Shown here: positions 4,818 to 64,000 of the stretch, in pieces
Layout of the letters: every line of letters begins with the position of its first letter
Numbering within the stretch: position 1 is the stretch's first letter
From: an uncultured Candidatus Saccharibacteria bacterium
Lineage (GTDB): Bacteria; Patescibacteriota; Minisyncoccia; Phycocordibacterales; UBA9973
Direction of reading: 5' to 3'
Length of the DNA stretch: 64,000 nt
Assembly: GCA_964639185.1 (NCBI GenBank)
Contig: CAZXCN010000004.1
Location: 174-64,173, forward strand
Notes under the pieces: generated by a model
What the model was told of the DNA's origin: nothing
Seen by the model: the letters and a program-made list of their open reading frames with translations, nothing else
Databases searched by the model: none
Position numbers and translations under genes: made by a program

Positions 4818-4818
4818 A

Positions 4819-5880: not shown

Positions 5881-5883
5881 ATA

Positions 5884-6789: not shown

Positions 6790-6790
6790 A

Positions 6791-8827: not shown

Positions 8828-8892
8828 CCATAAGGGTGGCTTTTTGGTTAACTTAACTTTTTACAAAGCTCAAGCTTCTTTAACTAATATTA

Positions 8893-10863: not shown

Positions 10864-11607
10864 AATTGTTTAACTAAATATTTATAAAGTTACGCTAGCT
10901 TCGACGAGGGTCGGATAATTCCAGACTCCTACACTAGCACCGTATAAACATTTTCTTCGATACACCTTATAAGGATGTATCGTTTGCCCGAACTTTTTCA
11001 TCTTTCATACTTCTCTATCAAAGTAGTATTAACATGATCAAGACGAGCGTGACTAAATCAGAATATTTATATATTTTATTACATCGAGCTCTATCACAAG
11101 ATGAGATAAAAGATTTAAATAAACTGAGTAAGTTTCGAAAAAAGGCCTTGTTCCGACGCTATGTCGGTAACGCCATATATACTATATATAGTACACATGA
11201 CAGACCAATTGAAACGAATAATAATTGTAAACATTGATTACTGCTTACCGTTGAGACGGCGCATGTAATACTTTTGGAAACAATTTGGCTGTATTTTGAT
11301 TCGGTATCAATAAAATACAGTATTCTATTTTCAATGATCCCCCGCGCCTGTAAACAGTGCGAGTACCTATCTGAAATTCCTTATAAATAAGTAATACAGA
11401 CAGATGTTACATGATAGCATAATATACAAAAATATACCAGTGCTAGCACGTTTAAACATTATACACTACAAACATAAATAAATCATATATTCAATAGTGT
11501 GGATATCTTTAAATTAATACAGTTCTCCAAAGATTTTGAATCTAAGGAAACAACTAATACATAACACAACGATATCTATTTACTATGACGGAGGAATAGG
11601 GCTTTTA

Positions 11608-12510: not shown

Positions 12511-12688
12511 AATTTGTCTTTTAGTAGATTTTATTAAATTGCTTGACCATTATATAACGGACATGAGACATAATGCAAGGGTTTTCTTGTAAAGAAATTA
12601 TTGTGTCAGCCATGTGAAATTATTTCATTTTGAGCATGATAAATTCTTACTACTTTCTAATTAATTCATGATATAATTAACAAATATT

Positions 12689-14905
12689 ATGACAAAAAAA
12701 GTTGTTGAAGATGATGAAGATTTTGACGAAGAGGAACCACGCAAATCCACTCGTAAAAATAAAAAATCAGTTAATAAAAAAAGCAAAAAAAAGGTAGAGC
12801 TAAAGGAAGAAACAAGGCATAGTATTATCGGTGTCAGCTTCTTTGTTTTGGGTGTGTTTATTGTTATGTCTTTCTTCCAATCTGCAGGTGTAGCTGGTAG
12901 CTTTTTTTCCAAAATATTTAATTCATTTTTTGGTGTTGGGTACTACTTCTTGCCTATATTGCTCGGTGTTGTAGGGATATCATTTATGCGTACAGGTCGC
13001 CCACAAGTAGCCCGCTTGCATGCAATAACCGGAGCATTAGTACTATTATCTTCCCTCGCTATTATGGACCTAGCAATGAATGGAACAGGTGCTTCTGAAA
13101 ATATATCTATGGGTGGATATCTAGGTAGCTTGTTTGCATATCCATTTGTAAAACTTTTTGGAATTTACGCCAGCTTTTTATTCCTCGGTGCAATACTTAT
13201 AGTTTCATTAATCGTATTATTTGATAACAAGCCAAATCTACTAGGATTCTGGAATAGTATAAAAAATGTACTTTCTAGTAAATTAAATTTCTCTCTATTT
13301 AAATCTAATAAAAATGATGACACTTATGAGGAATACAATTACGAAGAAGAATCAATAGAATCAGAACCTGTAAAAGTTCCTGAAGTACAGACAATGAATA
13401 ATGATGTGGTAGAAGAAAACGAAGAAGAAGAATTTATTCCAAAAAAGAGAAAAATATCCGGCGCTTATGTCCCTCCCCCATTATCATTACTAGAACGCGA
13501 CAAAGGTAAACCAAATGTAGGTGACATTAAATCTAACATGAATATCATTCAGCGGACTCTTGCGAACTTTGGTATTCAAGTCGAGATGGATGAAGTAACC
13601 ATAGGCCCTACAGTTACTCGATACGCATTGAAACCTGCACAAGGTATGAAATTATCACGTATTGTTGGTTTACAAAATGACCTAGCCTTGGCTCTTGCTG
13701 CACACCCTATCCGTATCGAAGCTCCTATTCCTGGTAAATCACTAGTAGGTATCGAGATCCCAAACAAAGTAAAATCAACAGTGGGTCTTGCAACATTGCT
13801 TGCTGATGAGAAATTCCAACAAGCTTCCAAGCCTCTAACAGTAGCTCTCGGTAAAGGGTTGTCTGGACGTGCATACTTTGGCAACTTGGCGAAAATGCCT
13901 CATGCACTAATAGCAGGAGCAACAGGATCAGGTAAATCAGTAACTATCCACTCAGTTATCACCTCACTCCTTTATCGAAATGGCCCCGAAGAAATGCGCA
14001 TGATCATGGTGGATCCAAAACGTGTAGAACTTACCCTTTATAATAAAATTCCACACCTATTAACACCTGTTATAACAGATGCCAAAAAATGTATCTTGGC
14101 GCTTAAATGGGCAGCAAAAGAAATGGATCGTCGTTATGACATGCTAGAGAGCGAAGCTGTGCGCGATATTGAGAGTTATCACAATACAATTCTTCCAAAG
14201 AAAAAGAATATAGAAGAGAGCGACAAGATGCCTTATATAGTTATTATCATTGATGAATTAGCTGATATTATGCAATCTTACCCAAGGGAATTAGAGAGTG
14301 CTATCGTTCGCCTAGCCCAGATGTCACGTGCTGTGGGTATTCACCTTATTCTTTCTACTCAACGCCCATCGGTCAATGTCATCACAGGGCTTATCAAAGC
14401 CAATGTTCCTACTCGTGTAGCTTTACAGGTTTCCTCACAGATCGATTCACGTACAATATTAGATGCTGCTGGTGCTGAGAAGCTCCTAGGTGCAGGAGAT
14501 ATGTTGTATGCTTCAGGTGAGATGAGCCAACCAGAACGCCTACAAAGTGCATTTATATCTGAAGACGAAGTAAAGAAAGTGGTACAATACTTAAAGAGAG
14601 CTTATCAAGACGAACTTCCTGATGAAATAGATCTTTCTGGTACTGTAGATAGTGGTAGTGGATTGTTCAATGCAAGCATGGATGACAATAACGATGATGA
14701 CCTATACGAAGATGCTCGTATAACAGTTATCGAATCAGGAAAAGCGAGTACTTCATACTTGCAACGCAAGCTTGGTGTTGGATACGCTCGTGCTGCAAAA
14801 TTAATAGACATGCTCGAAGATCGTGGAATAGTAGGTCCAGGAAATGGATCCAAGCCTCGTGACGTATTAGAAAAACCAATAAATAACCCAGCTTCAATGG
14901 AATAA
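12689..14905 (+). CDS. ftsK: DNA translocase FtsK/SpoIIIE
   Basis: N-terminal TM segments, Walker A 'GATGSGKS', 'RPSVNVITGLIKANVPTRVALQVSS', and C-terminal gamma winged helix 'SYLQRKLGVGYARAAKLIDMLEDRGIVGP'. Confidence 0.9.
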   Translation: MTKKVVEDDEDFDEEEPRKSTRKNKKSVNKKSKKKVELKEETRHSIIGVSFFVLGVFIVMSFFQSAGVAGSFFSKIFNSFFGVGYYFLPILLGVVGISFMRTGRPQVARLHAITGALVLLSSLAIMDLAMNGTGASENISMGGYLGSLFAYPFVKLFGIYASFLFLGAILIVSLIVLFDNKPNLLGFWNSIKNVLSSKLNFSLFKSNKNDDTYEEYNYEEESIESEPVKVPEVQTMNNDVVEENEEEEFIPKKRKISGAYVPPPLSLLERDKGKPNVGDIKSNMNIIQRTLANFGIQVEMDEVTIGPTVTRYALKPAQGMKLSRIVGLQNDLALALAAHPIRIEAPIPGKSLVGIEIPNKVKSTVGLATLLADEKFQQASKPLTVALGKGLSGRAYFGNLAKMPHALIAGATGSGKSVTIHSVITSLLYRNGPEEMRMIMVDPKRVELTLYNKIPHLLTPVITDAKKCILALKWAAKEMDRRYDMLESEAVRDIESYHNTILPKKKNIEESDKMPYIVIIIDELADIMQSYPRELESAIVRLAQMSRAVGIHLILSTQRPSVNVITGLIKANVPTRVALQVSSQIDSRTILDAAGAEKLLGAGDMLYASGEMSQPERLQSAFISEDEVKKVVQYLKRAYQDELPDEIDLSGTVDSGSGLFNASMDDNNDDDLYEDARITVIESGKASTSYLQRKLGVGYARAAKLIDMLEDRGIVGPGNGSKPRDVLEKPINNPASME

Positions 14906-29320: not shown

Positions 29321-31222
29321 TTACCTTACTACCTTCTCATCGTCAATCTTGAAAAAGGGGTCATTTTCCAAACGTGTACTAAGTGACTGTTTGACCGAAC
29401 GTAAACCGCTATTAGAAAATGAATCAATACCCGTTAGATTAACTTCCTTTATAATATTTGGCACAGTACCTACTTGAGAAACTGAGGGCTTTATTTTTAT
29501 ATTAAATGCCGCCTCTCTATTATTTGAGCCAAATCCTGTATTTGATCTTACTGTACCAATATTCCACACCACTTGTCGAGTCAAAGAGTCATATGTTACA
29601 ACTTCCTTGTTACCATTCGCTAAACCTACCCATTCAACATATACAGGTAATTCTGCACGAGCCTCAGCTTGAGTTACTGGATTTATAGAATTCGAAAGTG
29701 TCCAATATATTGTATAAGTTGTATCTTTTTCTGCTTTTGGAGGCAACTCACCTGAAGCATAATTTGCACGAGCAACAAGTTGGAAATCTGAAGCAATTCG
29801 AACTATCTTCTTTGCAAAATTATTTATTTCAGATACAGCTGAGCCTGATGTAGATTCACGTCCTTTTATACTAACTTCCAATATTATTTGCGGGTCACGA
29901 ATTGTTTGGTTAGAACCAATAACAGTCATTGGGGTGAATTCAAAATTTAGATACCCAGTAGAACCCGGTGCTAGATTTGCAAATTCTGAATTTGTATTTC
30001 TGTTCCATATGATTCGATTATTTGCAGAATCATAAAAGCCTTGCTCAGGAACCACTGTTTCTTTATCAAAAATATTACCACTAAATTGCATGCTAACTTC
30101 AGCATCCAAGATTGATGAAGGTAGATTATTGGCCCATACTATTTGCCCTCGAATCATCTTGCCTCCAGATGTAGAATAACTATCTAGATCTGCTCCATCG
30201 AGCAATATTGTAGCTTGCAAGAATGGCTTGTGTAATTCAACAGTATGCAACAATGAATTATATATAACATCAACAATTGATTTATTCATTCCTTTTGTTG
30301 TTCCTACATATACATGGAAAGCTTTTTCATCACCATCTTGGCCATTCAATGTGCCTTTGATTATTATTGATACTGGCTTACCTACTGCTAAATTATTTAA
30401 ATTCCAAACAGAATTACCAAATACAGGCTTCGGCAATGTCTCACTAGGCTTAAAACCATTTGGGTAACTCACTGACAGCATTGTATCGCCCTCAGGTAAT
30501 GTTGTGTTGAGAGTGGTGGTAATATTTAAAGTTATTTCCTGACCAGAACTTGTTTGTATTGGACCATCTATAGCCAAAGTTATCGGTGATGAACTGATTG
30601 TAACAGGATAAGATTTTTCTTTTGTAAAAATAGCATTTGAACCTTCAGGGTGATATTCAAGCTTCACTTTTACATTACGTATAGTATTCTGATCACCATA
30701 AAGTGTAACCTTTTGGGACTTTTCCACTCGGCCACCTGCTGGTATAGTACCTATTTCCTCCTTTGGCAAACGAATAATACTATCAGGTGAATCGACTTCT
30801 GAAGTAGATGCACCTTTTGGATATTCAATAACCATATTTGATAATTCAAGGGCTGCATTATTGTGATTTACTATTTCTATTTGTAGCGACAATTCTTCAC
30901 CACCCTGAGTAAATGCATTTCCTAAAATATTTATTTCTATATTGTCGCTGGACACTGTGCGAGTACCATTCATATACATATAGACTCCAAAAAATATTGC
31001 TCCAATGAAAAACAAAATAGCTCCAATGAAAAATTTCTTTGCTATTGATATATGAGTGTTTTTTAATACAGTATCTTCAGACTCCTTCCATGCATTTGGA
31101 ACATTGTGTGGTACAGCATGCAGGACCCCTTCTTTATGATGAGCCTCCGAAGAAAAACCTCTTTCGTATAATTTACGTTTAATATCTTCTATTCTGTGCA
31201 GTGGGTTCTTAGATTCTGCCAT
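29321..31222 (-). CDS. Membrane-anchored protein with repeated beta-sandwich (CARDB/DUF11-like) extracellular domains
   Basis: Cytoplasmic N-terminus, one TM segment ('FFIGAILFFIGAIFFGVYMY'), then about 5 repeats with an 'x(I/V)xVxNxG...PG' pattern. Confidence 0.45.
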   Translation of the reverse strand: MAESKNPLHRIEDIKRKLYERGFSSEAHHKEGVLHAVPHNVPNAWKESEDTVLKNTHISIAKKFFIGAILFFIGAIFFGVYMYMNGTRTVSSDNIEINILGNAFTQGGEELSLQIEIVNHNNAALELSNMVIEYPKGASTSEVDSPDSIIRLPKEEIGTIPAGGRVEKSQKVTLYGDQNTIRNVKVKLEYHPEGSNAIFTKEKSYPVTISSSPITLAIDGPIQTSSGQEITLNITTTLNTTLPEGDTMLSVSYPNGFKPSETLPKPVFGNSVWNLNNLAVGKPVSIIIKGTLNGQDGDEKAFHVYVGTTKGMNKSIVDVIYNSLLHTVELHKPFLQATILLDGADLDSYSTSGGKMIRGQIVWANNLPSSILDAEVSMQFSGNIFDKETVVPEQGFYDSANNRIIWNRNTNSEFANLAPGSTGYLNFEFTPMTVIGSNQTIRDPQIILEVSIKGRESTSGSAVSEINNFAKKIVRIASDFQLVARANYASGELPPKAEKDTTYTIYWTLSNSINPVTQAEARAELPVYVEWVGLANGNKEVVTYDSLTRQVVWNIGTVRSNTGFGSNNREAAFNIKIKPSVSQVGTVPNIIKEVNLTGIDSFSNSGLRSVKQSLSTRLENDPFFKIDDEKVVR

Positions 31223-33107: not shown

Positions 33108-33542
33108 TTATTTTCTATTATCATATTCAATCAAAAACTCAATAGCTTTATCTAATACATCCTTGCGTGTTTCCTGACTAAACATAAATGTTTCTACAGC
33201 TTCGTTGTATGTTACCCATTTATACTCGTCAATCTCTTCCTTTTGTATAACTACTGTTTTATTTTTCGCAATACCAATAAAATATTGATTAGTCTTTAAT
33301 ACTCCATTTTTTATAAAATATTCTTCACGAATTAATGGAGTATCTAGAATTTCAATGTCTTCTATTTGTGTTTCCTCTTGTAATTCACGCATAGCGGTTT
33401 GTAGTGGTGTTTCCCCCTCTTCACAATGACCTTTTGGGAAACTCCAATTTACACCATAATCAATCTCTTTATGTCGTAAAATTAAAAATTTATTTTCATC
33501 TCCTAGTAAAACTACAACTACTCCGTATGCATTTTCTTTCAT
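33108..33542 (-). CDS. NUDIX hydrolase
   Basis: Nudix box 'GHCEEGETPLQTAMRELQEETQI'. Start overlaps the ileS stop by 4 nt. Confidence 0.75.
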   Translation of the reverse strand: MKENAYGVVVVLLGDENKFLILRHKEIDYGVNWSFPKGHCEEGETPLQTAMRELQEETQIEDIEILDTPLIREEYFIKNGVLKTNQYFIGIAKNKTVVIQKEEIDEYKWVTYNEAVETFMFSQETRKDVLDKAIEFLIEYDNRK

Positions 33543-36500
33543 TTGGATATCTGAATTCTAATTTCTAATGTATCTACAACTACAGTTTCGCCATCATTAT
33601 CGGCAAAGTTTACAACACCAGCACCTACTGTCTTCTTGAATTCATTCATAAATTCTTCTACTAAATGTTGCGCATTTATAGATATGGTCACAGTCACCAC
33701 ATCAGCTGGTACAAGTCCCATGTTCTTCCTACCATCTTGGACAGCACGAACAAGCTCGCGATAGTCACCCTCGCGCTTTAGATCAGGAGTTATCTCTGTA
33801 TCCAAACCTAGCTCAGCACCGACGACTACATCTTTTACGTTCAATTCATCTTTCAATATTTCTTTGTATTCAGAAGTAATATTTGATTTTGTAACAATTA
33901 TTTTTGAAAGTGGCTGACGAACTTTGATACCAGCTTTCTGCCTCATCTGCAAACCTACTGTTACAATGTTGCGTACTTCTTGCATCTCCTCCAATACAAC
34001 CTTATCAGCTTCACCATCCACCTCAGGCCAGTCTGCTAGGTGCACACTCTCCACATCATTATTCAGCTTCAACCTCTGCCAGATATCCTCGGCTATAAAT
34101 GGTGTAAATGGCGCTATAAGCGTAACTGTGTTTTTTAGTACATAATACAGAGTAGACAGAGCTTCTGTGTCACCATCCTTCAACCTGTCACGTGATCGGC
34201 GTAGGTACCATGTAGACAAATCTTCAATAAACAATTCAAACGGTCGTGTAGATAGAACCATATCATAAGCCTCCATACCATCGGTAACTTCCACCACCAA
34301 TTCAGCAAGGCGTGACAATATCCATTTATCTAAAACATTTTCACTTACCACATTTTTATTATTCTCCAATTCTTTATTGCGATACAACTCATAAAATGTT
34401 GTAACATTTTCCAACCTGCCTACTATCTTGCTAGATATCTCTTGCACAGTCTTCTCGGTAAATGCTACATCCTCCCCCTTCATTACAGGGCAAGACATAA
34501 GGTAGAATCGCAATGCATCTACACCGTATTTATCAAAAAGTATTTGTGGGTCAGGGTAATTATTTTTTGACTTACTCATCTTGCTACCATCTTCAGCAAG
34601 TATAGTTCCTGTTGTTACAACATTTCGGAATGGTGCATGACCAAACAAAGTGCTTGATATTATATGTGTGTAGTAGAACCATGTACGAGTCTGGGCAATA
34701 TATTCAGCCACGAACCCTGCTGGGAAGTTCTCCTTCTCCCAATTTGGTCTTTCAAATGGATAATGATCTTGAGCAAAAGGCATCGAACCAGATTCGAACC
34801 AACAGTCGATAACTTCAGGAACACGAGTATACTCAGTACCCTCGTGGTCCACCAACTTTATCGCGTCGATATATGGCCTGTGTAGATCAAGCTCGTAGTG
34901 TGCATTGTGTGGTAGTGGAACAAAATCAAGGTCGATCAATGTACATGGGTTATGTGGATTATCTCTATATATATTGAATGATGTTACTTCATCGGCAGCC
35001 AGTGCCACTGCTGGCAAAACCTCAAGTCCTATACCATGTGTAACGATCAATATATTTTCGTTCTGATATTTACTTTCCAATTCGTAGATAAAATCTCCAA
35101 ACCTATTCTTTGCATTTTGATGACTCTCACCACCTTCGGGTGCCGCATGGTAGTAACTTGATTGATCATAAGCCCAATCATTGCGTACCTGCCAAGTCTG
35201 ACCATCATAAACACCTGGATTCAATTCTATAAGTCTTTCATCGTGATCGATACTGTCTTTTGCTACACCAATACTATCAACTATTATCTCAGCTGTTTGA
35301 TTTGTACGTGCGAATCGTGATGCAAAAACTTTTGTAATATTTGCATGTTTTAATTTATCGGCTACTTCTTTTGCCTGATCAATACCCTTGTCTGTAAGCG
35401 AGTCGCCTGCCTCATCCTTGTAACTAATCCTATTTTCCACATTATGTTGTGCCTCACCATGACGCACTACAAAGTACCTGTTACCACTCCTCTTTACCTT
35501 GCTCTTCAGATCATCGAGCGAATTTACTATCATCAATTTACCACTCTCGGATTTCCAGAATGGCAAGGGGCTAGCCCAGAAGCGATTGCGAGATATTGTC
35601 CAATCCGGCGCACCCTCCATGATATGCTTGAACCTACCCTCTTTCAAATGAGATGGGACCCAATTCATAACCTCGGCATTCTTCAATGCCTCGGCTTTTA
35701 CCTTCTGCACATTTATAAACCATGAAGGTAGTGCGTAGTATAGAAGTGGTGTATCACAGCGATAGCAGTGTGGGTATGAGTGCACGATCTTTTCCTTTGC
35801 AAATAATGAACCTTTGTGTGCCAAATACTTTATCACCAATACATCGGTTGATTGTGGATCCTCCTTTGGCTTGGCTTTTACATCAGGAAAATCTACTACT
35901 TCTTTAGTAAAGAATCCGTTTGGTTCAACATGACGAATAAAAGGAATATTATTCTCTTTTGCAAGATTCATATCATCCTCACCAAAAGCTGGAGCCTCGT
36001 GTGCAATACCTGTACCTGCATCATCGGTTACAAAGTCGGCATGCCATACACGCCAAATATTTTCTTTGTTTGGCATATCAACATCTTTATAATAATCAAA
36101 CACCGGTTCGTATTGCATACCTACCAATTCACTCCCCTTCACTTCCTTCAATATTTCAGGTTCTACAAATTTATCTTTCAACTTTTCAAAAAGATTCTTT
36201 GCCACTATAAGGTGGTCGTGTCCGCCACCAGCATTAGTAGTCTTCACATAAACATAATCAATATCTTTATTTACAGCTATCGCAGTGTTGCCCGGCAAAG
36301 TCCAAGGGGTTGTAGTCCAAGCAAGTAAATATGTATGTGAAGCAGAATCAGGAAAATTCTCGTCGTGTCGGAGCCCCCGGAGAGAGGGTAAAGCGACAGA
36401 ATTTTCCTGATTCTGCGAAACACGAAATTTCACATAAACAGAAATATCAGTTATGTCTTTATAACTATTATCCATAGCAATTTCTGAATTGGCTATTGGA

Positions 36501-37051
36501 GTCTCGCAACGTGGGCAGTATGCCAATACGCGCACACCCTCGTAAAGTAACTCTTTGTCATTCATCTGCCCCAGTGCCCACCATACACTCTCGATAAAGC
36601 TATTGTCCATAGTCTTATACGAGTTATCGAAGTCTACCCAGCGACCCATACGGTCCACTGTCTTCTTCCATTCACCTACATATTTCAACACAGCACTACG
36701 TGCATGCTCGGCGAATTTATCTACACCGAATTCCTCGATAGCTTTACGCCCTGATATACCTAGCTCTTTCTCGACAATATTCTCAATAGGTAGACCGTGG
36801 CAATCCCAACCCCAGCGCCTCGGTACATGGAACCCTCGCATGGTTTTATATCTTCCAATCACATCTTTTGCTGTCGATCCTAATATATGCCCATAATGTG
36901 GTAAACCTGTAGCAAATGGTGGCCCATCGTAGAAAACGTAAGTTCCCTTTGGAGCCTCCTTTGTTAGTGACTTATTGAAAGTGTCATTCTCTTTCCAGAA
37001 TCCTAAAACACTCTCTTCCCTTTTTGAATTATTACTTTTTTCGTTTTCCAT
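33539..37051 (-). CDS. ileS: Isoleucyl-tRNA synthetase (type 2) with an inserted histidine-phosphatase-superfamily domain
   Basis: 'PPFATGLPHYGHIL' (HIGH), 'WTISRNRFWASPLPFW', 'DLHRPYID', 'KMSKSKNN' (KMSKS). An approximately 190-aa segment (residues about 523-715) carrying 'VVRHGEAQHN', 'SRFARTNQTAE', 'PEGGES' and 'IVTHGIG' sits between the WxISRxR and DLHRP motifs. Confidence 0.9.
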   Translation of the reverse strand: MENEKSNNSKREESVLGFWKENDTFNKSLTKEAPKGTYVFYDGPPFATGLPHYGHILGSTAKDVIGRYKTMRGFHVPRRWGWDCHGLPIENIVEKELGISGRKAIEEFGVDKFAEHARSAVLKYVGEWKKTVDRMGRWVDFDNSYKTMDNSFIESVWWALGQMNDKELLYEGVRVLAYCPRCETPIANSEIAMDNSYKDITDISVYVKFRVSQNQENSVALPSLRGLRHDENFPDSASHTYLLAWTTTPWTLPGNTAIAVNKDIDYVYVKTTNAGGGHDHLIVAKNLFEKLKDKFVEPEILKEVKGSELVGMQYEPVFDYYKDVDMPNKENIWRVWHADFVTDDAGTGIAHEAPAFGEDDMNLAKENNIPFIRHVEPNGFFTKEVVDFPDVKAKPKEDPQSTDVLVIKYLAHKGSLFAKEKIVHSYPHCYRCDTPLLYYALPSWFINVQKVKAEALKNAEVMNWVPSHLKEGRFKHIMEGAPDWTISRNRFWASPLPFWKSESGKLMIVNSLDDLKSKVKRSGNRYFVVRHGEAQHNVENRISYKDEAGDSLTDKGIDQAKEVADKLKHANITKVFASRFARTNQTAEIIVDSIGVAKDSIDHDERLIELNPGVYDGQTWQVRNDWAYDQSSYYHAAPEGGESHQNAKNRFGDFIYELESKYQNENILIVTHGIGLEVLPAVALAADEVTSFNIYRDNPHNPCTLIDLDFVPLPHNAHYELDLHRPYIDAIKLVDHEGTEYTRVPEVIDCWFESGSMPFAQDHYPFERPNWEKENFPAGFVAEYIAQTRTWFYYTHIISSTLFGHAPFRNVVTTGTILAEDGSKMSKSKNNYPDPQILFDKYGVDALRFYLMSCPVMKGEDVAFTEKTVQEISSKIVGRLENVTTFYELYRNKELENNKNVVSENVLDKWILSRLAELVVEVTDGMEAYDMVLSTRPFELFIEDLSTWYLRRSRDRLKDGDTEALSTLYYVLKNTVTLIAPFTPFIAEDIWQRLKLNNDVESVHLADWPEVDGEADKVVLEEMQEVRNIVTVGLQMRQKAGIKVRQPLSKIIVTKSNITSEYKEILKDELNVKDVVVGAELGLDTEITPDLKREGDYRELVRAVQDGRKNMGLVPADVVTVTISINAQHLVEEFMNEFKKTVGAGVVNFADNDGETVVVDTLEIRIQISK

Positions 37052-37333: not shown

Positions 37334-38122
37334 TCAAACCTGATCACCAACTTTATATTTAAATATTTTACTAGCTGATCTACCTTGTAGAACAATTTCA
37401 AGAAATCGCTTACTCTTGTATCCAGAACTACCTTTTACAAAAGCTGGAGAATGGTCTTCTTTGGGAACGTCCGCCAACTTTTCATAATATTTAGGGTCAA
37501 GTAATGATCTGTTTTCCAGAACATTTACCCATTTATTAGTTGAGGTGGTCTTGCAATTTCCAAAGCAGTCTACTGACCATACAAAATTCTGATAGCCAAA
37601 ATTTTGTATTTGAATTTTGCTTGATGGGACATCTTCCTCATCTACAATCCATTTGGCTAAATAAGGCAAATATTCGTAACTCCTGAATTGTGATTCAGAA
37701 ATACGAATTGCCTCCTCTTCTGGTAAAAATTTACTACACACATTTAAAACATTTGTTTCAAATGTATACTTAAACATTCCAAGCTTTTTAGCTAAAGAAA
37801 AACAATTTGGTGTTCCAATGATCAGCAAATTTTTAAACCAGTGGAAACAGAATGGAATTCCATTTGGATATTGCTCTTTGTTACCACGAGGGGCAACATT
37901 TACAACAATAATACCCTTTGAATCCTTATGCGCATCAATAGCATCAATGAGGTTACCTGAGGCTTCTAGATCGGTGGTAACACCAACAAAAGTAGTGTTC
38001 ACATTACCAAGCAATGCTTGATAGCGGAGAATTTGCCTAGCACGAGCATTGTCGTCACAGCAGTCGGAGATGATTGTTAGTTGCATATTTTTATATTTAT
38101 TTGGTTTTATTTTAAAGAACAA
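37334..38122 (-). CDS. DUF62 / SAM hydroxide adenosyltransferase (fluorinase/chlorinase-like) family protein
   Basis: N-terminal 'LTIISDCCDDNARARQ' (compare TDFGxxDxYVG) and C-terminal 'VWSVDCFGNCKTT' (compare IDxFGNLxTN). Confidence 0.45.
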   Translation of the reverse strand: MFFKIKPNKYKNMQLTIISDCCDDNARARQILRYQALLGNVNTTFVGVTTDLEASGNLIDAIDAHKDSKGIIVVNVAPRGNKEQYPNGIPFCFHWFKNLLIIGTPNCFSLAKKLGMFKYTFETNVLNVCSKFLPEEEAIRISESQFRSYEYLPYLAKWIVDEEDVPSSKIQIQNFGYQNFVWSVDCFGNCKTTSTNKWVNVLENRSLLDPKYYEKLADVPKEDHSPAFVKGSSGYKSKRFLEIVLQGRSASKIFKYKVGDQV

Positions 38123-38287
38123 AAAAAACAGCCCATCGGGGCTGTTTTTTGTATTTCATATTTTAGAAAATTATGCAGTACAAAAAGCAACCTCGATATT
38201 TGGGCTTCGCATCATCATAGATACTGTTGCTTTTGTAAACTTATTCATATTTTTATACTATCAAAATGATAAATAATGTCAAATACC

Positions 38288-39985
38288 CTACACCACCTCC
38301 TTTTGATAACAAGATTCACAATACACTGGTCGGGATTCTTGATTTGTAAAAAATGTTTCAAATGTATTATTACAATACCCTTCGTGTTCATGACTTTCTT
38401 GCGAGCAATCACATTGTCTGTTTACTAGATCAAAACTTCCTCGCATTGCTTCCCTCTTTGCATAACGACAGAAAAAGCAAGCCTCAGGAATAGGAATTTT
38501 TAACCTTTTATAAAATGTAAATTCATCCGGTAAAATTTTGTAATTTCTTTCACATTCTACACAAGCAAGAATTTCCGAGGTTATTGTATCTGGCACGTCT
38601 TCAATACTATCGGGTATGTCTACCTGCTTTATTGTTTCTTTGCCTCTTGTTTGTTGTAATTCATCTTGCCAATGATACCCTTTCTCTGTTGCTTCTTCTT
38701 TTAAAATATCAAGCTGCTCTATAGCCCGAGTTTCGTTTATTCCACAAAGAGCATATTTTGCTGGGAAAAATTCACCATATTCCCCCCTGTTTTTCATATC
38801 TTCGATTATCTGTTCTTTTAATTTAAAATATTCTTCTTTGCTATACCTTTTATTAAGAATCACATATTTCCCAGTCTTTACTCCCACACAGCCAAAAACT
38901 TCTTCACATGAATGACAATCTATACAGTATGAGATATTCCTATTTTTCCAAGATTTTATTGTAGCTAGTGAGTTGTAGGACTGATCGGGAGTAACACACT
39001 CATAGGCAAGCTCTGTTTCCGCTCCACCAGCACAATCATAGCAAGATTTAAAAGTAACCCCATTGTGAGAGTATCTAGAATCTTCAGAAAAAGCAGCATA
39101 TTTTGAATCATGTGTATTTTTACTTCGAACCATTTCTGCTCCTGTACAATTTACACAATTACGAAGATCTGCAAACTTCCTTGGGTGATCTTTTATAAAA
39201 TCTGCAAACTCTTCCTTGGCTTTTTTAGCCCCACTTCTGGTTTCAAGTTTATAGGATTCAATTATTTTGTTATATTCCTCTCTTGTATATTTCTTATTTT
39301 TAAAATAGTGTTGCTTGTTACGTAGGCCCACACACATAAAGCAATCTGTGCATCCTCGTAAATCATAACCAAAGAAACAATCTGTGCATGAAGCGGACCA
39401 ATATATGTATTTACTACGAGCCACCGAGTCAATAACCACCCCTTCATATGTAAATTCGCTCATTTCATTTATACAATGACAATCACAAACATCTTTGGCT
39501 ACATTTATATACATACTATATAAACAATTCTCCATTCGCCATGCCACAAAGCACATTGCAGAATTCTTAGAAAAAGCAATGTCGTTATTGTACAAACAAT
39601 TAACGCTCCCGATACCTTCATCATTTACTATTCCAAGTTTTGGTATAGATTTTAAAAGATTATTAAATTGTTCAAAGAAAGATTTTGTGGGGTCATATTC
39701 TATACCATAATCTTCTGGATTAAATTTGTCTCCAAAGAAGCACTTCGGGCACATTACCTCACTTGCATTATTTTGTGCATATATAGAAATAAACTTTTTA
39801 CTACACATAAAACACTCTCTGTTATACAGAACAAAATCATTGAGCCATGCTAACCTTCTTGTTCTTCTGCATTTTGGGCAGAAAGTTGGTGCAGGCACAC
39901 CCATCTTTTCATAAAAGCCAAAATCATCCGGCTCGATGGCGAAGTCGTTCTTACAGTTCTGGCAATTATGTGTTTCAGGATTCAT
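38288..39985 (-). CDS. Cysteine-rich multi-zinc-ribbon protein with internal repeats, unknown function (paralog 1)
   Basis: About 40 Cys in CxxC/CxDC pairs. Similar N- and C-terminal ribbons ('CQNC...FY.K.GVPAPTFCPKCRR' and 'CVEC...FYKRLKIPIPEACFFCR'). Internal repeats of the form 'C.DC...GC.G...NKxYxxEEY'. Start lies 5 nt after the argS stop. Confidence 0.5.
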   Translation of the reverse strand: MNPETHNCQNCKNDFAIEPDDFGFYEKMGVPAPTFCPKCRRTRRLAWLNDFVLYNRECFMCSKKFISIYAQNNASEVMCPKCFFGDKFNPEDYGIEYDPTKSFFEQFNNLLKSIPKLGIVNDEGIGSVNCLYNNDIAFSKNSAMCFVAWRMENCLYSMYINVAKDVCDCHCINEMSEFTYEGVVIDSVARSKYIYWSASCTDCFFGYDLRGCTDCFMCVGLRNKQHYFKNKKYTREEYNKIIESYKLETRSGAKKAKEEFADFIKDHPRKFADLRNCVNCTGAEMVRSKNTHDSKYAAFSEDSRYSHNGVTFKSCYDCAGGAETELAYECVTPDQSYNSLATIKSWKNRNISYCIDCHSCEEVFGCVGVKTGKYVILNKRYSKEEYFKLKEQIIEDMKNRGEYGEFFPAKYALCGINETRAIEQLDILKEEATEKGYHWQDELQQTRGKETIKQVDIPDSIEDVPDTITSEILACVECERNYKILPDEFTFYKRLKIPIPEACFFCRYAKREAMRGSFDLVNRQCDCSQESHEHEGYCNNTFETFFTNQESRPVYCESCYQKEVV

Positions 39986-39990
39986 AAAAT

Positions 39991-41703
39991 TTACATTTTA
40001 TTTGGGGTTTGGATACCTAGGAGGTATAAGGCGTTTTGCATTGTTGTGTGGAATGCGGAAACAAGGGCTAGGTGGTAAGCTTTGTATTCATTTTCATCAT
40101 TTAGTATATGAGTATTACCGTAGAAACTATTAAAGCTACTTGCAAGCTCGGTAGCATATGTGGCTATATGGTGTGGTTCAAGTTCTGTATACGCGCGGAC
40201 AACCACTTCAGGGAATTGGTACAACATCTTTTCCAAAACTGTTACTTCTGCTGGGGAGTTGTGTGTATCGAAATTGTTTAAGCCAGCTTTTCCAAGTATC
40301 GCATTTGCACGCACCGCTGTGTATTGTAAATACGGACCAGAATCCCCTTCGAAAGATATAGACTTTTCAGAATCATAAATAATATCTGATCCCAGCGATG
40401 AACGTAGTATGGAATATTTTAGTGCGGACACACCTACTACTTCTGCAATATTCTTCTTTTCCTCATCACTCAGTTCCCTCTCAGTCATCTTCTCATAAAC
40501 AGTATCAATAGAGTCGTGTAATAGTGACTCACCAGTAATAATATTACCCTTGCGTGAACTCATCTTGCCACTTGTTAGGCGCATCATGCCGTGAGTAATA
40601 TGCTTCATGCGTGCCTCGTACTCCGGATGGATAAGTGATATAGCTTTTGCTACTACTTTCATATACTCGCCTTGTTCAATGGCAGTCACTACTATAGATA
40701 GGTCTAGGTCCTGTTCCTTTTCAAACTTTGTTATAGTTAGGCCTATTTCCTTTGTCTCGTACAATGGGATGCCTAGTGATGTAATAAATACACGAGTGTG
40801 TAACTTTGGATCATAATTCTCTGCTTTGAAAACTATTGCTCCGTCAGACTCTTCGAAAACATTTGGAATATTGTCCCTCACTATCTTCTCACCAATTGGG
40901 GCCATGACGCTTTCGAAAAAGTAGTGAACAAATTTTGTCCCAAGGATTTTATAAATTTCTTCAAAAGCTTCCAGTGTTACCTCGCGGCCCCAGTCATATA
41001 TTTTGTTTACTTCAACATCACTCCTATCATAAACTTTTTTATTTAGAGCTTCGATTTCCTTCTTTGCATTTTCATCATTATCATAAGCATCGCTACCTTG
41101 TGCATAACAATCCCCTATGTATTGGGCTAGAACTGAAGCAGATGCAGATTCATTTGCTGGAGAGCCAGCCTTGTACATACCATATATTGCTTTTGCTACA
41201 TGCATTCCTACGTCACCTTGATAATTTGCGCGTACAGTTGTAGCCCCTGAGAATTCGACAATGCGTGCCACCGACTCACCTATAGCATTGGTCATGAGGT
41301 GTCCGATATGAAATGGCTTGAAAGGGTTTGGGTCAGTATACTCTACCATTATCTTTTTACCTTTTGATATTTCACTCTTACCCCACTCGCTACCTTTATT
41401 TAATATCTCACCAATTGCATTAGTAAAAAATTCACGAGATAGATAAAAATTAATGAACCCTGCACCAGCTACTTGAATTTCACGTACATGAAATTCACCC
41501 TGATCTTGTCGAAGAATTTCAACAATTTTTTCTGCCAATTCTCTCGGGTTCATCCCTGCCTGCTTTGCATATGCCATAGCCACATTCGTTGAATAATCAC
41601 CATTATTCAAATCAGCTGGGTGTTCAAGTACAATAGCCCCTGCCTGTATACCCAGGTTCTGCAAGGCTTTATTTATACTAGCTTTGATCTCGTCTTGTAT
41701 CAT
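39991..41703 (-). CDS. argS: Arginyl-tRNA synthetase
   Basis: 'PNPFKPFHIGHLMTNAIGESVARI' (HIGH region) and the C-terminal DALR anticodon-binding domain. Confidence 0.9.
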   Translation of the reverse strand: MIQDEIKASINKALQNLGIQAGAIVLEHPADLNNGDYSTNVAMAYAKQAGMNPRELAEKIVEILRQDQGEFHVREIQVAGAGFINFYLSREFFTNAIGEILNKGSEWGKSEISKGKKIMVEYTDPNPFKPFHIGHLMTNAIGESVARIVEFSGATTVRANYQGDVGMHVAKAIYGMYKAGSPANESASASVLAQYIGDCYAQGSDAYDNDENAKKEIEALNKKVYDRSDVEVNKIYDWGREVTLEAFEEIYKILGTKFVHYFFESVMAPIGEKIVRDNIPNVFEESDGAIVFKAENYDPKLHTRVFITSLGIPLYETKEIGLTITKFEKEQDLDLSIVVTAIEQGEYMKVVAKAISLIHPEYEARMKHITHGMMRLTSGKMSSRKGNIITGESLLHDSIDTVYEKMTERELSDEEKKNIAEVVGVSALKYSILRSSLGSDIIYDSEKSISFEGDSGPYLQYTAVRANAILGKAGLNNFDTHNSPAEVTVLEKMLYQFPEVVVRAYTELEPHHIATYATELASSFNSFYGNTHILNDENEYKAYHLALVSAFHTTMQNALYLLGIQTPNKM

Positions 41704-59738: not shown

Positions 59739-62381
59739 CTACTGGCACCCTTCACAAATCAATGCATCTTGTGGATCTACTGGCCCATGAACTACGAGGC
59801 TCTCTTGCATTCTTCTCGGGGGATTTTGTGTTTGAGGGTTATTCGTCTGAGTTGCTGGCTTTACTTGATTTAAATTCTTTTTTTCTTCAACTTTTACTTC
59901 ATTTTTCTCAACAACATTTTCAATTTTAACCTCAGGAATAATTACTTTTTCAACTTTCTTTACCTCTGGTATTGGTTGAGTATTTACTGTTGGTTGTTTA
60001 TTAAAAACAGAAGCGAAACCTACCTTGCCCAAAGCTGTGCTCTTATTTACTTTTGTTGTAGACTGTTCAGCAGAATGTTTTGGCTTTACATGCAAATAGT
60101 AAGTAGTCTTCAAACCTTTCTCCCAAGCATTACTATAGATATCAATAACTTGATTTACATTTTGCACATCTAAATACATATTACGAGATATTGCTTGGTC
60201 AACCCATTTCTGAGCACGTGCTGCTACCTCAATGAAAGCATACGGTGATGTTATGAATGATGTTTTATAGATCTTCTTTATATTTTCTGGAATATTATCC
60301 ATATGTTCCAAACTACCATGACTCATCAATAGTTCCTCTCTATTCCCTTCCCAAAGACCTAAAGCTTTCAGATCATGAACTAGGTTTGGATTTACTTCGA
60401 GGTATTTACCAGAAATCTTGTTACGAGAAAACATTTGCGCGAATCTAGGGTCAATACCAGGTGAAGTTCCTGCTACTAATCCAATATTTGCATTCGGTGC
60501 AATAGCCATAACTGTTGCATTACGCACACCTTTGCGAACCTTTTTACGAAGCTCATCCCAATCAAGCTCAGGAATCATCTTTATACTGCCAGTCATTACT
60601 GACAATTTTTCCTCACGAGAATCTTCAAGAATTTTTAATGTATCTATTGGCACCATACCCTTTGACCATCCTGAGCCTTGGAAATTTTTATAAGCACCAC
60701 GCTCGGATGCTAATTTTGCGCTTTCATCTATTGCCATATATGAAATAAATTCAAAAACTTTATCAGTTAAGTCATAAGCCTCTTGATCCTCATATGAATA
60801 ACCCATCTTTTCAAATGTATCTGCCAATCCCATAAGACCCAAGCCTACAGCACGATTCTCGGCATCAGCTTTGATTGCTTCGGCAATTGGTAATTTATTC
60901 ACATCAATAAGGTTATCGAGCTGGCGAATAGATAGGCGTGCTGATTCTTCGAGCCTTGCCCAATCTATCTGCTTGCCTACTACGTGTTGAGGAAGGTTGA
61001 TAGATACCAAGTTACAAACAGCTATATTTTCTTTGTTTTGAGGAAGAGTAACTTCAGTACATAGATTCGAAGCATGTATAGTACCAGTGTTATTATTGAG
61101 CGCACGCACATTGATAGTATCCTTCCATGTTAGCCATGGGTGTGATGTTGTTTGCAATGACACGAGGATATTTTTATATTGCTGACGAGCTGGTAGCTTC
61201 CTCCACATTTTCAATTCACCCTTCTCTGCCATATCTACATATTCCTTGTAACGCTTGGAAAATTCATGCCCATATAACTCAACTAGGTCAGAAACTTCAT
61301 TCGGATCAAATAAGTACCAATCCATATCCATCTTTACACGCATCATGAATTCATCAGATATATACACAGCAGTGTTTGCTGTACGAGTACGACGATAATC
61401 ATCTCCGGCATTTTGCTTCAAATCGATGAAATCTTGAAAATCTAAGTGCCAATTCTCCATATAGAAACATAGGGCACCCTTCTTCTTTCCACCACGCTGA
61501 ACAGCACGTACTGCTGAGTCAATAATGTGCATAAATGGAACTGGTCCTGAAGATACAGTATTGTTAGACTTTAATACTGAACCATTAGCACGAAGCTTTG
61601 TAACTGATAGCCCAATACCTCCTGTTGCCTTTGAAAGCATTAAGACATCTGAAACTGTTTTACCAATATGAGCCATATCATCCTCTATTTGCATCAAATA
61701 ACAGTTAGAGAGTGATGGGCGTGTAGTACCTGCACCAATATTTGTAGATCCAGCAGAAAGGTATTCAAGACGTGACATTTTGTCGTAGAATTTCATAGCC
61801 CATTCTGTTGGATTCTTTTCCTTTAGTGACATGCCCATAGCAACACGCATCCAGAAGTATTGAGGTGTCTCAAGTGGCTTTTGATTTTTGTCCTTTATAA
61901 GATAACGGTCACGCATAGTAGATACACCAGAATATTTATATAATTCATCGCGCTCTACTTTTAAATATTTACCTAGGTCATCAAGATCAAATAGTGAATC
62001 TAAACGCTTGTCCAAAAGGCCAAGCTCTACACCAAGACGAATATAATGCTTGAAATGTCCTTTATGCATTGTTGCCAATTCTTCTTTTGTCTCAAAGTCA
62101 CCCAATACTGCCTTGTAGATTGTTTTCATGAACAGACGTGTAGCTATTTTGTCGAATTCTAGGTCCTCTTGGGCGTTCTGTAATGATGCATTTATAGTAG
62201 CCTGATCCAATTCTTCAGTAGTAATGCCATCATATAGTGTTAGACGAGTTTCTGAAGCGATTTGAGTCACTTTTGAAACAGGATCCGTCAATCCGTAACA
62301 AGCTCTTTCGATAGACTTGTTAATACGGTCGGCATTAAAAGATTCGCGTGATCCATTACGTTTTGTGATTGTTATACTCAT
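59739..62381 (-). CDS. nrdA: Ribonucleotide reductase class Ia large subunit (R1) with N-terminal ATP-cone
   Basis: ATP-cone 'ITKRNGSRESFNADRINKSIERAC', 'NLCTEV' active-site Cys region, and C-terminal 'CEGCQ' redox pair after a low-complexity tail. Confidence 0.9.
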   Translation of the reverse strand: MSITITKRNGSRESFNADRINKSIERACYGLTDPVSKVTQIASETRLTLYDGITTEELDQATINASLQNAQEDLEFDKIATRLFMKTIYKAVLGDFETKEELATMHKGHFKHYIRLGVELGLLDKRLDSLFDLDDLGKYLKVERDELYKYSGVSTMRDRYLIKDKNQKPLETPQYFWMRVAMGMSLKEKNPTEWAMKFYDKMSRLEYLSAGSTNIGAGTTRPSLSNCYLMQIEDDMAHIGKTVSDVLMLSKATGGIGLSVTKLRANGSVLKSNNTVSSGPVPFMHIIDSAVRAVQRGGKKKGALCFYMENWHLDFQDFIDLKQNAGDDYRRTRTANTAVYISDEFMMRVKMDMDWYLFDPNEVSDLVELYGHEFSKRYKEYVDMAEKGELKMWRKLPARQQYKNILVSLQTTSHPWLTWKDTINVRALNNNTGTIHASNLCTEVTLPQNKENIAVCNLVSINLPQHVVGKQIDWARLEESARLSIRQLDNLIDVNKLPIAEAIKADAENRAVGLGLMGLADTFEKMGYSYEDQEAYDLTDKVFEFISYMAIDESAKLASERGAYKNFQGSGWSKGMVPIDTLKILEDSREEKLSVMTGSIKMIPELDWDELRKKVRKGVRNATVMAIAPNANIGLVAGTSPGIDPRFAQMFSRNKISGKYLEVNPNLVHDLKALGLWEGNREELLMSHGSLEHMDNIPENIKKIYKTSFITSPYAFIEVAARAQKWVDQAISRNMYLDVQNVNQVIDIYSNAWEKGLKTTYYLHVKPKHSAEQSTTKVNKSTALGKVGFASVFNKQPTVNTQPIPEVKKVEKVIIPEVKIENVVEKNEVKVEEKKNLNQVKPATQTNNPQTQNPPRRMQESLVVHGPVDPQDALICEGCQ

Positions 62382-62582: not shown

Positions 62583-62622
62583 AAAAAATCCCCACCCAAA
62601 AAATGTAATTTTTTGGGTGGGG
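62583..62622 (-). terminator. rho-independent terminator of Cys-rich paralog 2
   Basis: 'ccccacccaaaaaat-gta-attttttgggtgggg', a 15-bp stem with an A-run on the plus strand (T-run on the minus strand). Confidence 0.7.
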
Positions 62623-62675
62623 ATAACCTCTCTTTTGCATTTCCCTACTACTTCCTACCTACTACTTTCTACTTG

Positions 62676-64000
62676 CTAGAGTACTTCTTGCTGATAACAT
62701 TTTTCGCAATACACCAACTCTTGCCTATCTGGCGTATATGATGTTTCAAATTCTGTACCACAATTATTGGAACATTTTCTTTTATACAACTTGGGCATAC
62801 GAACATAAGAAAGTCTTTCATAATGCCTACAATTTGGGCATGAATTTGGTAAAGATATATTATGATTTTTATAAAATTCTAATTCTTCTTTCGTGATTTT
62901 AAAAACACCAACACACCTATGACTTTTACATATATTATTATGTGCACATTCTAAAACTTCATCAATAATTGAATCTGAGGTTTTATCTGGAATTCCATCT
63001 TTTGTTAAAGTAGGATTATATTTATTAACTACAGGCTCTCTATATAGGTATCCTGATTCTATAATTTCTTCTCTTATCAAAGGAAAAAATTCTTGAGCCG
63101 CAGATTCATTATAGGCAAAAGCCATACAAATTTGTGGAAAATATTCACCGTATCTATAGATTATTCCTTTTTCATCTACATAAGGCATATCCATCATATG
63201 ATGTCTTATTTTTTTTACTATTTCAAAATATTCTTCTTTTGTATGCTGTTTATTTAAAATACAATACTTATTGCTTTGTAAACTAACACAACCAAAAGTA
63301 TCTTGTACGTTTAAGCAAAAATCAGTATATTCACTATTTACAGTTCCATTACCAATAGAAACAAAATGTGAATTAGTTGATCCTTTTGCCCCACCATGAA
63401 CTTCATACAAAAGTTCTCCTGACAAACTTCCAAATACATCATAAGAATCTTTTAGACCAACTGTCCGCATAACAAATTTACAATTTTCACTTTCTGTTGA
63501 ATGAAAAGACTTATTTACATTATTTGATCTAACAACATTATCCCCTGTTGAATTATTAGACCCCGTTAAATTAGCAAATTTATGAATCGAATTTTTAAAT
63601 AAATCTGAAAATTCATTTTTTAAATTAAAAACACTAGATAATGAGCTAAAGTCAATTTTATTAATCTCATTTTTATATTCTTCTTTTGTTAATTGTTTGT
63701 TTCTGAAAAAATATTGCTTATTCCTTACATTTGAAGACATAAAACAATCTACACAATTAACGCAATCATATAGAAAATTTGAACTAACACAATCTCTACA
63801 ATCTATCAAATAAGATGAATTTGAGCTTTTACTTGTTTGAATACAAGAATAACAATACTGGCAATCAATTATATTATAACAATCCATACAATCATTACAT
63901 CGATCAGCGCTACGAGTATAATAAATCCAATTAGAATCAGTAGTTGTAAAAGATAGATAAATATCTTTTGAATTTAATATATAGTTACCATAATCACAAT
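62676..64000 (-). CDS. Cysteine-rich multi-zinc-ribbon protein (paralog 2), 5'-partial at window edge
   Basis: Reading frame stays open upstream of the listed Met (63887) to nt 64000. Alignable with paralog 1 ('CFMSSNVRNKQYFFRNKQLTKEEYK' versus 'CFMCVGLRNKQHYFKNKKYTREEYN'; C-termini 'YCEKCYQQEVL' versus 'YCESCYQKEVV'). Confidence 0.5.
   Translation of the reverse strand, partial: CDYGNYILNSKDIYLSFTTTDSNWIYYTRSADRCNDCMDCYNIIDCQYCYSCIQTSKSSNSSYLIDCRDCVSSNFLYDCVNCVDCFMSSNVRNKQYFFRNKQLTKEEYKNEINKIDFSSLSSVFNLKNEFSDLFKNSIHKFANLTGSNNSTGDNVVRSNNVNKSFHSTESENCKFVMRTVGLKDSYDVFGSLSGELLYEVHGGAKGSTNSHFVSIGNGTVNSEYTDFCLNVQDTFGCVSLQSNKYCILNKQHTKEEYFEIVKKIRHHMMDMPYVDEKGIIYRYGEYFPQICMAFAYNESAAQEFFPLIREEIIESGYLYREPVVNKYNPTLTKDGIPDKTSDSIIDEVLECAHNNICKSHRCVGVFKITKEELEFYKNHNISLPNSCPNCRHYERLSYVRMPKLYKRKCSNNCGTEFETSYTPDRQELVYCEKCYQQEVL

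Follow-up and report, generated by a model that had tools for sequence, protein, structure and literature searches.

Zinc ribbons with CxxC-x17-CxxC spacing form a described domain type, and zinc binding has been shown experimentally for it in small proteins of Methanosarcina mazei (PMC12704099). VirD4-type homologues are numerous in Patescibacteria, where 5,713 were counted in 2,918 genomes (about two per genome) with only 148 of them near virB4; the ATPases could not be assigned to a type IV secretion system (T4SS) in the published work, whose authors considered exaptation for another function possible (PMC12102498). Here, we describe a protein family that carries ribbons of this kind and recurs beside such ATPases. 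The starting point was a 64,000-nucleotide stretch from an uncultured Candidatus Saccharibacteria bacterium (GenBank assembly GCA_964639185.1, contig CAZXCN010000004.1, positions 174 to 64,173), hereafter called the window, which contains two of its genes: paralog B, next to nrdAB and cut by the window edge, and paralog A, next to argS. The proteins are members of an existing unnamed family; newly described here are its architecture, its ancient tandem paralogy, and its recurrence near VirD4-like ATPase genes and the Hsp70 locus. No account of it turned up in the literature when this was searched by the domain names and for a zinc-finger family of Patescibacteria.

Integrity and architecture of paralog B

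In the open reading frame (ORF) listing of the window, paralog B appears as a 403-amino-acid (aa) ORF beginning at an ATG (62676..63887, minus strand). That ATG is internal and corresponds to Met164 of the complete protein. The correctly read frame, 62676..63998(-), comprises 440 sense codons and runs without a stop to the window edge; the first 126 codons fall beyond it. A protein search retrieved P0001, which is 566 aa long, 100% identical to B, and encoded on an NCBI contig (64,678 nt) as well as two Logan contigs. The complete ORF of 566 codons with its own ATG was read on L001 and L002, and the 3' part of the gene on L002 matched the window base for base where the two overlap. The recovered N terminus, MNPETRNCQNCHNDF, begins MNPETRNCQNC, like that of paralog A (MNPETHNCQNCKNDF). 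An earlier note on this DNA, made from its letters alone, had held that the frame stays open to the window edge and that the window truncates the N terminus; both points proved right, and extension of the contig past position 64000 revealed no in-frame stop immediately upstream of the kind expected for a pseudogene.

To estimate selection, we compared B with its 84%-identical ortholog P0002 (L083) in place of paralog A, because synonymous sites are saturated between A and B at 35% aa identity. The nonsynonymous and synonymous divergences (dN and dS) were 0.103 and 0.818, and the resulting dN/dS of 0.13 indicates purifying selection on paralog B. The idea that B is a pseudogene remnant or a spurious copy of paralog A draws its sole support from the ORF running off the window edge; it is refuted by the whole ORF on independent contigs, the mere 35% identity between A and B, the dN/dS against the ortholog, and full-length homologs numbering in the thousands, and we give it practically no credence. 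Thus, paralog B is a real, intact, and selectively maintained gene. As a separate observation, the proportion of synonymous differences (pS) between B (62676..63998) and L083 10001..11698 was 0.50, lower than for nrdB (0.76) and nrdA (0.67) in the same pair of genomes, which could reflect constraint at the codon or RNA level or a more recent exchange of the gene.

BLASTP aligned the window fragment of B with A along its length at 31% identity (454 columns, E=2e-60), and full-length B with A at 35% identity (583 columns, E=2e-100); a second match placed the C terminus of B on the N terminus of A (E=4e-9). The repeat-core and C-terminal motifs from which the earlier note had argued paralogy were all found, namely, NVRNKQYFFRNKQLTKEEY, LQSNKYCILNKQHTKEEY, and the ending YCEKCYQQEVL in B, and LRNKQHYFKNKKYTREEY, VKTGKYVILNKRYSKEEY, and the ending YCESCYQKEVV in A. 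In a tblastn search of the whole window with both proteins, A and B were the only two copies. Since 35% identity excludes an assembly duplication, the paralogy stands, and on sequence grounds A and B are ancient paralogs in different, anciently separated subfamilies.

The protein has a pseudo-symmetric layout in which a zinc module at each end encloses two core repeat domains (R1 and R2) and a conserved acidic domain X (Table 1). The N-terminal module falls beyond the window edge and combines a treble-clef-like four-cysteine (Cys4) finger with a CxxC-x17-CxxC ribbon. Its C-terminal counterpart combines the treble-clef-like finger of site 3 with the ribbon of site 4 (C535-x3-C539-x17-C557-x2-C560). 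Homology of the two terminal zinc modules follows from the alignment of residues 11 to 86 with residues 488 to 564 (E=4e-12), and an internal duplication of the core from that of residues ~122 to 241 with ~270 to 390 (E=4e-10). Each half of the core closes in 'NK.Y...NKQ.TKEEY' and a helix: R1 of paralog B ends in C196-x8-C205-x2-C208-x2-C211 followed by NVRNKQYFFRNKQLTKEEY, and R2 ends in LQSNKYCILNKQHTKEEY and a long helix. The zinc modules are confined to the two ends of the protein, and the 'NKQ..TKEEY' cores, which had been taken for zinc-ribbon repeats, belong instead to a duplicated non-ribbon core with a 12-residue period.

That period is clearest in R1, which comprises about eight turns with a Ser/Cys ladder. 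Autocorrelation at lag 12 reached 0.50 for Ser/Cys/Asn content, with subpeaks every 3 residues, and 0.32 for hydrophobic content; R2 gave a weaker signal. AlphaFold predicted one common layout for the two proteins, with a mean predicted local distance difference test (pLDDT) score of 80.7 and a predicted template modeling (pTM) score of 0.82 for B, close to those of A (82.7 and 0.83). In the two models, R1 has short strands about every 6 residues, which suggests a narrow solenoid, although at moderate confidence (pLDDT, 68 to 76 overall and 72 to 76 in B). Domain X was modeled at a pLDDT of around 90 and carries a mean net charge of −5.4. Its family signature is MPYxDxKGxxYxYGEFFP...YNE[ST]xAxE..PL..EE...GYxW; G410, E411, and P414 are invariant among 42 aligned members, and many further positions are at least 90% conserved. 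Mean net charges of +2.5 and +3.1 were obtained for the two zinc modules; the core is acidic. No transmembrane-like hydrophobic segment was found in the protein, and no signal peptide was seen by eye (no predictor was run); the protein is thus presumably cytoplasmic.

Table 1. Features of paralogs A and B, the encoded protein, and the flanking DNA (window coordinates; residue numbers of the 566-aa protein)
Feature	Window position	Strand	Residues	Basis or remark
Paralog B	62676..64000	-		3' end of an intact 566-aa gene: 440 codons and the stop, in frame 62676..63998
Core repeat domain R1	63657..63998	-	127-240 (start ~118, outside window)	Autocorrelation, AlphaFold, Cys conservation, alignment to R2
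Helix linking R1 to R2	63591..63656	-	241-262	
Core repeat domain R2	63222..63590	-	263-385	Internal duplicate of R1; alignment (E=4e-10), periodicity, AlphaFold
Acidic domain X	62967..63221	-	386-470	Conserved; alignment of 42 members, AlphaFold, charge
C-terminal zinc module	62679..62966	-	471-566	Alignment to N-terminal module, sub-cutoff profile matches, Cys 87-100% conserved
Cys4 site 1			C8/C11/C36/C39	
Cys4 site 2			C58/C61/C79/C82	Exact C-x2-C-x17-C-x2-C spacing in P0001
Cys4 site 3			C477/C488/C513/C516	
Cys4 site 4			C535/C539/C557/C560	Variant C-x3-C-x17-C-x2-C
Intrinsic terminator after B	62588..62624	-		17-pair stem then T run, 51 nt after the B stop
Paralog A	38288..39985	-		Complete, 565 aa, architecture as B; BLASTP, AlphaFold pLDDT 82.7, pTM 0.83
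argS	39991..41703			A begins 5 nt past the argS stop codon
Terminator-like hairpin downstream of A	38123..38150	-		12 pairs plus T run

Cysteine sites and comparison with described families

In the 42-member alignment, the cysteines of the four Cys4 sites are invariant (C560, at least 90%). Counted over 155 full-length members, sites 1 and 4 are ~97 to 99% conserved and site 3 is 87 to 100% conserved; site 2 is missing as a unit in about 39%. C196, C205, C208, and C211, at the end of R1, are 81 to 97% conserved in the same set and may form a fifth metal site. Paralog B has further CxxCxxC triplets on successive 12-residue turns of residues ~160 to 211 (63460..63880, minus strand), at C160/163/166, C172/175/178, C193/196, and C205/208/211. 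Only the C205/208/211 group is kept family-wide; since the other R1 cysteines of B are Ser in most members, they are probably small core residues rather than ligands.

With 20 or more cysteines, the protein might handle metals or redox state: it could buffer or store zinc, or it could sense redox conditions through thiols or Fe-S. The four Cys4 sites, the conserved cluster at the end of R1, and the extra triplets 160/163/166 and 172/175/178 of B are consistent with such a role, as are the Mg transporter gene mgtE adjoining B and a glutaredoxin gene about 440 nt upstream of one homolog (L088 627..863, on a contig mislabelled Woesearchaeota). However, most of the extra cysteines are replaced by Ser elsewhere and so probably belong to the core, about 39% of members lack the whole of site 2, and the strong conservation of non-Cys residues over 566 positions points to more than metal storage. 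We therefore consider a metal or redox function improbable.

Scans against Pfam and NCBIfam gave no model over residues ~95 to 470; at the ends, only sub-threshold matches to zf_Tbcl (PF13451) and to zf_Tbcl_2 (PF23477)/TIGR04272 were obtained, the latter in both window proteins. A few homologs, P0100, P0122, and P0156, pass the PF23477.2 threshold. The family resembles zf_Tbcl_2/TIGR04272 proteins, such as the small zinc proteins of Methanosarcina, in the exact spacing of site 2 and in the 'YC..C' ending, and site 4 is a spacing variant; those proteins, however, are single or tandem ribbons of ~40 to 60 aa, whereas the ribbon here fills one quarter of a module at the end of a 566-aa protein. 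Similarly, the N terminus resembles zf_Tbcl, a probable treble clef, in its C8-x2-C11-x24-C36-x2-C39 pattern, its F-x-I-x3-D-x2-FY and CR..RR elements, and coverage of 41 of the 48 profile positions, and zf_Tbcl was matched at E<0.01 in 9 of 42 members. The score is below the cutoff, and the domain has no known function, so nothing about function can be transferred from it. Sub-cutoff matches of paralog A to LuxS, Sol_i_2, and Lip_prot_lig_C (E of 0.006 to 0.05) were rejected as chance.

Single-sequence and profile searches of PDB sequences gave no significant relative; at best, zinc site 2 drew a LIM-like match (E=0.15). A Foldseek comparison of both AlphaFold models with the PDB gave nothing below E=3, and a fold search of BFVD returned only short zinc-ribbon or HNH-type matches. 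No PADLOC model matched the family, and no relative was found among 2.9 million viral contigs of IMG/VR; PHROGs gave one weak match, to phrog_15341 of unknown function (E=6e-5, residues 158 to 213). We thus rejected a phage-derived gene or a known defense gene on the lack of viral contigs and of PADLOC matches.

Other known systems with a partial likeness were also considered. NrdR consists of a zinc ribbon followed by an ATP-cone and is encoded with the nrd genes that it regulates; an NrdR-like regulator was rejected for lack of an ATP-cone match, for the terminator between B and nrdA, and for the rarity of ribonucleotide reductase (RNR) adjacency in the family. The DnaJ-type Cys-rich domain, with four CxxCxGxG repeats, was set aside since the motif is absent from the sequence and DnaJ_CXXCXGXG gave no match. 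More broadly, the DnaJ Cys-rich domain, McsA, and the ClpX zinc-binding domain are zinc-finger partners of ATP-driven machines, and the family shares with them structural Cys4 sites and genes within stress or chaperone loci; unlike them, it has no CxxCxGxG repeats, J domain, or UVR domain, and no sequence or fold similarity to them was detected. The antifreeze protein of Tenebrio molitor is a narrow beta-helix with 12-residue coils, and the core resembles it in its 12-residue period, its small inward Ser/Cys residues, and its two short strands per turn. The likeness is geometric only: there is no TxT motif, no Pfam antifreeze-protein match, and no Foldseek match in the PDB, and the protein is, by inference, cytoplasmic. 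Membership in the insect antifreeze-type beta-helices, which are secreted and have TxT ice-binding ranks and disulfides across the coils, was accordingly rejected, the period of 12 being present and the TxT rank, a signal peptide (judged by eye; no predictor was run), and Pfam and PDB fold matches being absent.

The family and its genomic neighbors

B belongs to this family by 100% query coverage in all top matches, four terminal Cys4 sites, and the duplicated core. Searches gave 5,066 matches at 90% clustering. A profile search at 50% clustering matched 5,224 representatives with a threshold of E<=1e-3; tightening it to E<=1e-30 left 2,186, and lengths were about 545 to 600 aa; the source annotations read 'hypothetical protein' or 'Zinc-binding domain-containing protein.' All informative taxon labels are Patescibacteria (Nomura-, Paceibacterota, Lipton-, Brenner-, Jorgensen-, Giovannoni-, Staskawicz-, Sungbacteria, Minisyncoccia, and others), and the family is essentially restricted to this group of ultra-small bacteria, mainly to Parcubacteria/Paceibacteria lineages. 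We rejected a 'Woesearchaeota' label on one homolog as misbinning, since its contig has a bacterial PCRF/RF-1 release-factor gene, and, given the typical family context of L012, treated its 'Burkholderiales' label as a probable mistake in binning or labelling.

Gene order was examined, with ORF clustering, in 80 species-level loci together with the window, L001, and L002. These 83 sequences contain 179 family genes, including an array of 8 copies in 13.7 kb (L029), and several metagenome-assembled genomes (MAGs) have 4 to 8 or more copies spread over loci. Tandem neighbors share a median identity of 40%, and none of 74 neighboring pairs were closer to each other than to a protein from another locus, which indicates that the paralogs are old and retained. 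In the closest relative (L083), the B ortholog comes after nrdA-nrdB and is itself succeeded by a copy of a third type, whose identity is 45% to P0002, 41 to 45% to B, and 34% to A. At 34% identity, this copy was rejected as an ortholog of A; hence, there are at least three subfamilies. Copies that immediately precede a short VirD4-like ATPase gene and dnaJ group with window paralog A, and so does an L082 copy that lies upstream of a long ileS, as A does in the window. The expectation in the earlier note of a real, possibly lineage-expanded family is therefore borne out by 2,186 clusters at 50% identity and by the common occurrence of multicopy genomes, often with tandem copies. One pair of tandem copies, in a Nomurabacteria MAG, has an 80-aa GIY-YIG gene between them (L085 9700..9942).

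By Pfam and NCBIfam, the recurrent neighbors are GrpE, Hsp70/DnaK, DnaJ, a PaaX-like regulator, DUF8128 (with transmembrane segments), and a protein with Sigma70_r4 and HARE-HTH domains, in addition to TrwB/VirD4/TraD-like P-loop ATPases of a long form (612 to 804 aa) and a short form (~482 to 588 aa). A VirD4-like ATPase gene adjoins a family gene in 20 of the 80 loci and lies inside the locus in 27; for genes of the Hsp70 system, the counts are 12 and 22. A rough estimate, which assumes a genome of some 800 genes with about two such ATPases and three chaperone genes, puts chance adjacency at <1%. With F denoting a family gene, the recurring order is rpsI-grpE-F-F-(paaX-like)-dnaK-ATPase(long)-F-F-ATPase(short)-dnaJ-(F). 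This super-locus is conserved in Paceibacteria (L036 [3655..13140], L037, L038/L077, L045, L023, and L074), with the paaX-like gene on the opposite strand. The ATPases are another protein class, orphan homologues of VirD4-type type IV coupling proteins (T4CPs), and their link to the family is one of association, with no homology beyond a ribbon. All 14 long ATPases carry this CxxC-x15-19-CxxC ribbon at about residue 455, which the long forms thus share with the family's CxxC-x17-CxxC type, and the one long representative scanned for it scored 48 bits against cutoffs of 27 to 36; the ribbon was found in none of 20 short ATPases. Neither form has transmembrane-like segments. A further recurrent arrangement is a trio of the Sigma70_r4 and HARE-HTH protein (~342 aa), the DUF8128 membrane protein (~440 aa), and, in most cases, a VirD4-like ATPase (L017, L032, L042, L049, L051, L070, L085, and L090), often followed by family genes. 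DUF8128 may be a membrane partner of the soluble ATPase.

The same associations could be read as those of translocated cargo, that is, of effectors recognized by the adjacent VirD4-like homologues and exported to a host, for example via the Patescibacteria T4SS. T4SSs are widespread in Patescibacteria (PMC12102498), the family is multicopy and diversified with copies adjoining T4CP homologues in 20 of 80 loci, and DUF8128 membrane proteins are encoded just upstream of some ATPases. Against this, the ATPases have no transmembrane segments, and such homologues lie far from virB4 (PMC12102498). Ancient paralogs of uniform length under purifying selection are, moreover, unlike fast-evolving effectors, and the family has no signal peptide by eye (no predictor run), no PADLOC match, and no relative in the 2.9 million viral contigs. 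Export as cargo is hence quite unlikely in our judgment.

In the window itself, the flanks of the two genes were as the earlier note had described them, beside an aminoacyl-tRNA synthetase gene and the RNR operon; these flanks say little about function here, given the 17-bp-stem terminator between B and nrdA and the different partners seen family-wide. Beyond the terminator lie a promoter-like site and then nrdA (59739..62381)-nrdB; on its upstream side, B is bordered by mgtE and then a hairpin. The hairpins on both sides indicate that B is a separate transcription unit, and because a strong terminator intervenes, the adjacency of B to nrdAB is positional, not operonic. Paralog A sits between argS and a 262-aa gene upstream of ileS, and it is probably cotranscribed with argS.

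These neighbors bear on the possibility that the protein binds nucleic acids, its two basic zinc modules clamping RNA or DNA with paralog-specific targets tied to translation or nucleotide metabolism. Conserved Arg-rich helices follow the second CxxC of the fingers (R40, R43, R44, R48, R517, and R521), the zinc modules have a net positive charge, the fold matches are limited to zinc-ribbon/HNH-type proteins or DNA-binding zinc fingers, and the neighbors include argS, ileS, leuS/ileS, a ribosomal protein operon, and RNR genes. Nevertheless, the charge excess is small (+2.5 and +3.1) with an acidic remainder, the fold matches are short and not significant (E>=7e-3), a terminator separates B from nrdA, and housekeeping neighbors are expected by chance in small genomes. 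RNR genes adjoin family genes in about 6 of 82 loci, too few for an association. Taken together, nucleic acid binding is conceivable, though we would not expect it.

Several neighboring genes showed features of their own. Family copies stand beside two RNR types, class I nrdAB (window, L008, and L083) and a ~790-aa protein with ATP-cone and RNR_Alpha domains (c25; L020, L072, L007, and L073), which is probably a class II RNR. The window NrdA (59739..62381, minus strand) is 880 aa against 846 for its L083 ortholog, which is 34 aa shorter and 66% identical (NrdB, 88%), and its C-terminal ~110 codons encode a low-complexity K/E/V/Q/P-rich tail before a terminal 'CEGCQ' Cys pair. At 33539..37051 (minus strand), a 1,170-aa isoleucyl-tRNA synthetase contains an inserted histidine-phosphatase (phosphoglycerate-mutase-like) domain with the RHG motif 'VVRHGEAQHN'; its L083 ortholog has Pfam His_Phos_1 between two tRNA-synt_1 segments, and the L082 homolog is 1,197 aa long. 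Two minus-strand genes, the 262-aa gene between A and ileS (37334..38122) and a 633-aa gene (29321..31222), gave no Pfam or NCBIfam match at E<=1e-3.

Proposed role and its meaning for Patescibacteria

We tentatively propose that the protein is a zinc-stabilised adaptor or scaffold that would serve orphan VirD4-like ATPases as well as the Hsp70 system. The core would be a rigid acidic solenoid, and the mildly basic, zinc-stabilised modules at the termini would provide docking or recognition; the adaptor would present a client, either protein or nucleic acid, to the soluble VirD4/TraD-like ATPases and to GrpE/DnaK/DnaJ. The ribbon common to the family and the long ATPases could be a shared docking element for both partners, and the diverse paralogs might handle different clients. 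Taken by itself, this adaptor role is possible but unlikely to be correct. Considered jointly, the identity, the architecture, and the adaptor proposal make up the best overall explanation, to which we give roughly even chances.

Several observations weigh against the adaptor proposal or the zinc assignment. The profile scores remain under their cutoffs: P0001 scored 22.9 bits against zf_Tbcl_2 (cutoff, 27), the window fragment 17.5 bits against TIGR04272 (cutoff, 36), and residues 5 to 44 of paralog A 16.1 bits against zf_Tbcl (cutoff, 24). R2 is the weakest part of the structural models (pLDDT, 56 to 69 overall and 56 to 67 in B), and no structural homolog pointing to a specific activity was found. 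There is no VirD4-like ATPase or Hsp70 gene near A or B in the window, and the association is also absent in many other loci, such as L090, in which the paaX-like gene comes immediately after grpE. Furthermore, the 80 loci are the best matches to paralog B and hence a biased sample, and shared ancestry of the synteny inflates the association counts; part of the association may thus be synteny inherited within one lineage rather than function.

A more specific form of the adaptor proposal would make the family a dedicated partner, as adaptor or cargo, of the orphan VirD4/TraD-like ATPases, forming with GrpE/DnaK/DnaJ a lineage-specific remodelling or translocation system. We hold this form to be doubtful. 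If it were true, it would account both for the roughly two T4CP homologues that are kept far from any T4SS and for the retention of a 1.7-kb gene in four to eight or more copies. The interleaving with orphan VirD4-like ATPases names a concrete candidate partner for the family, and the Hsp70 operon names a second.

Patescibacteria have genomes of under about 1 Mb, and yet many of them retain this 1.7-kb gene in four to eight or more diverged versions; in the MAGs richest in copies, the family makes up about 1% of genes. Because reduced genomes keep so many copies, the family is probably important to the biology of Patescibacteria.

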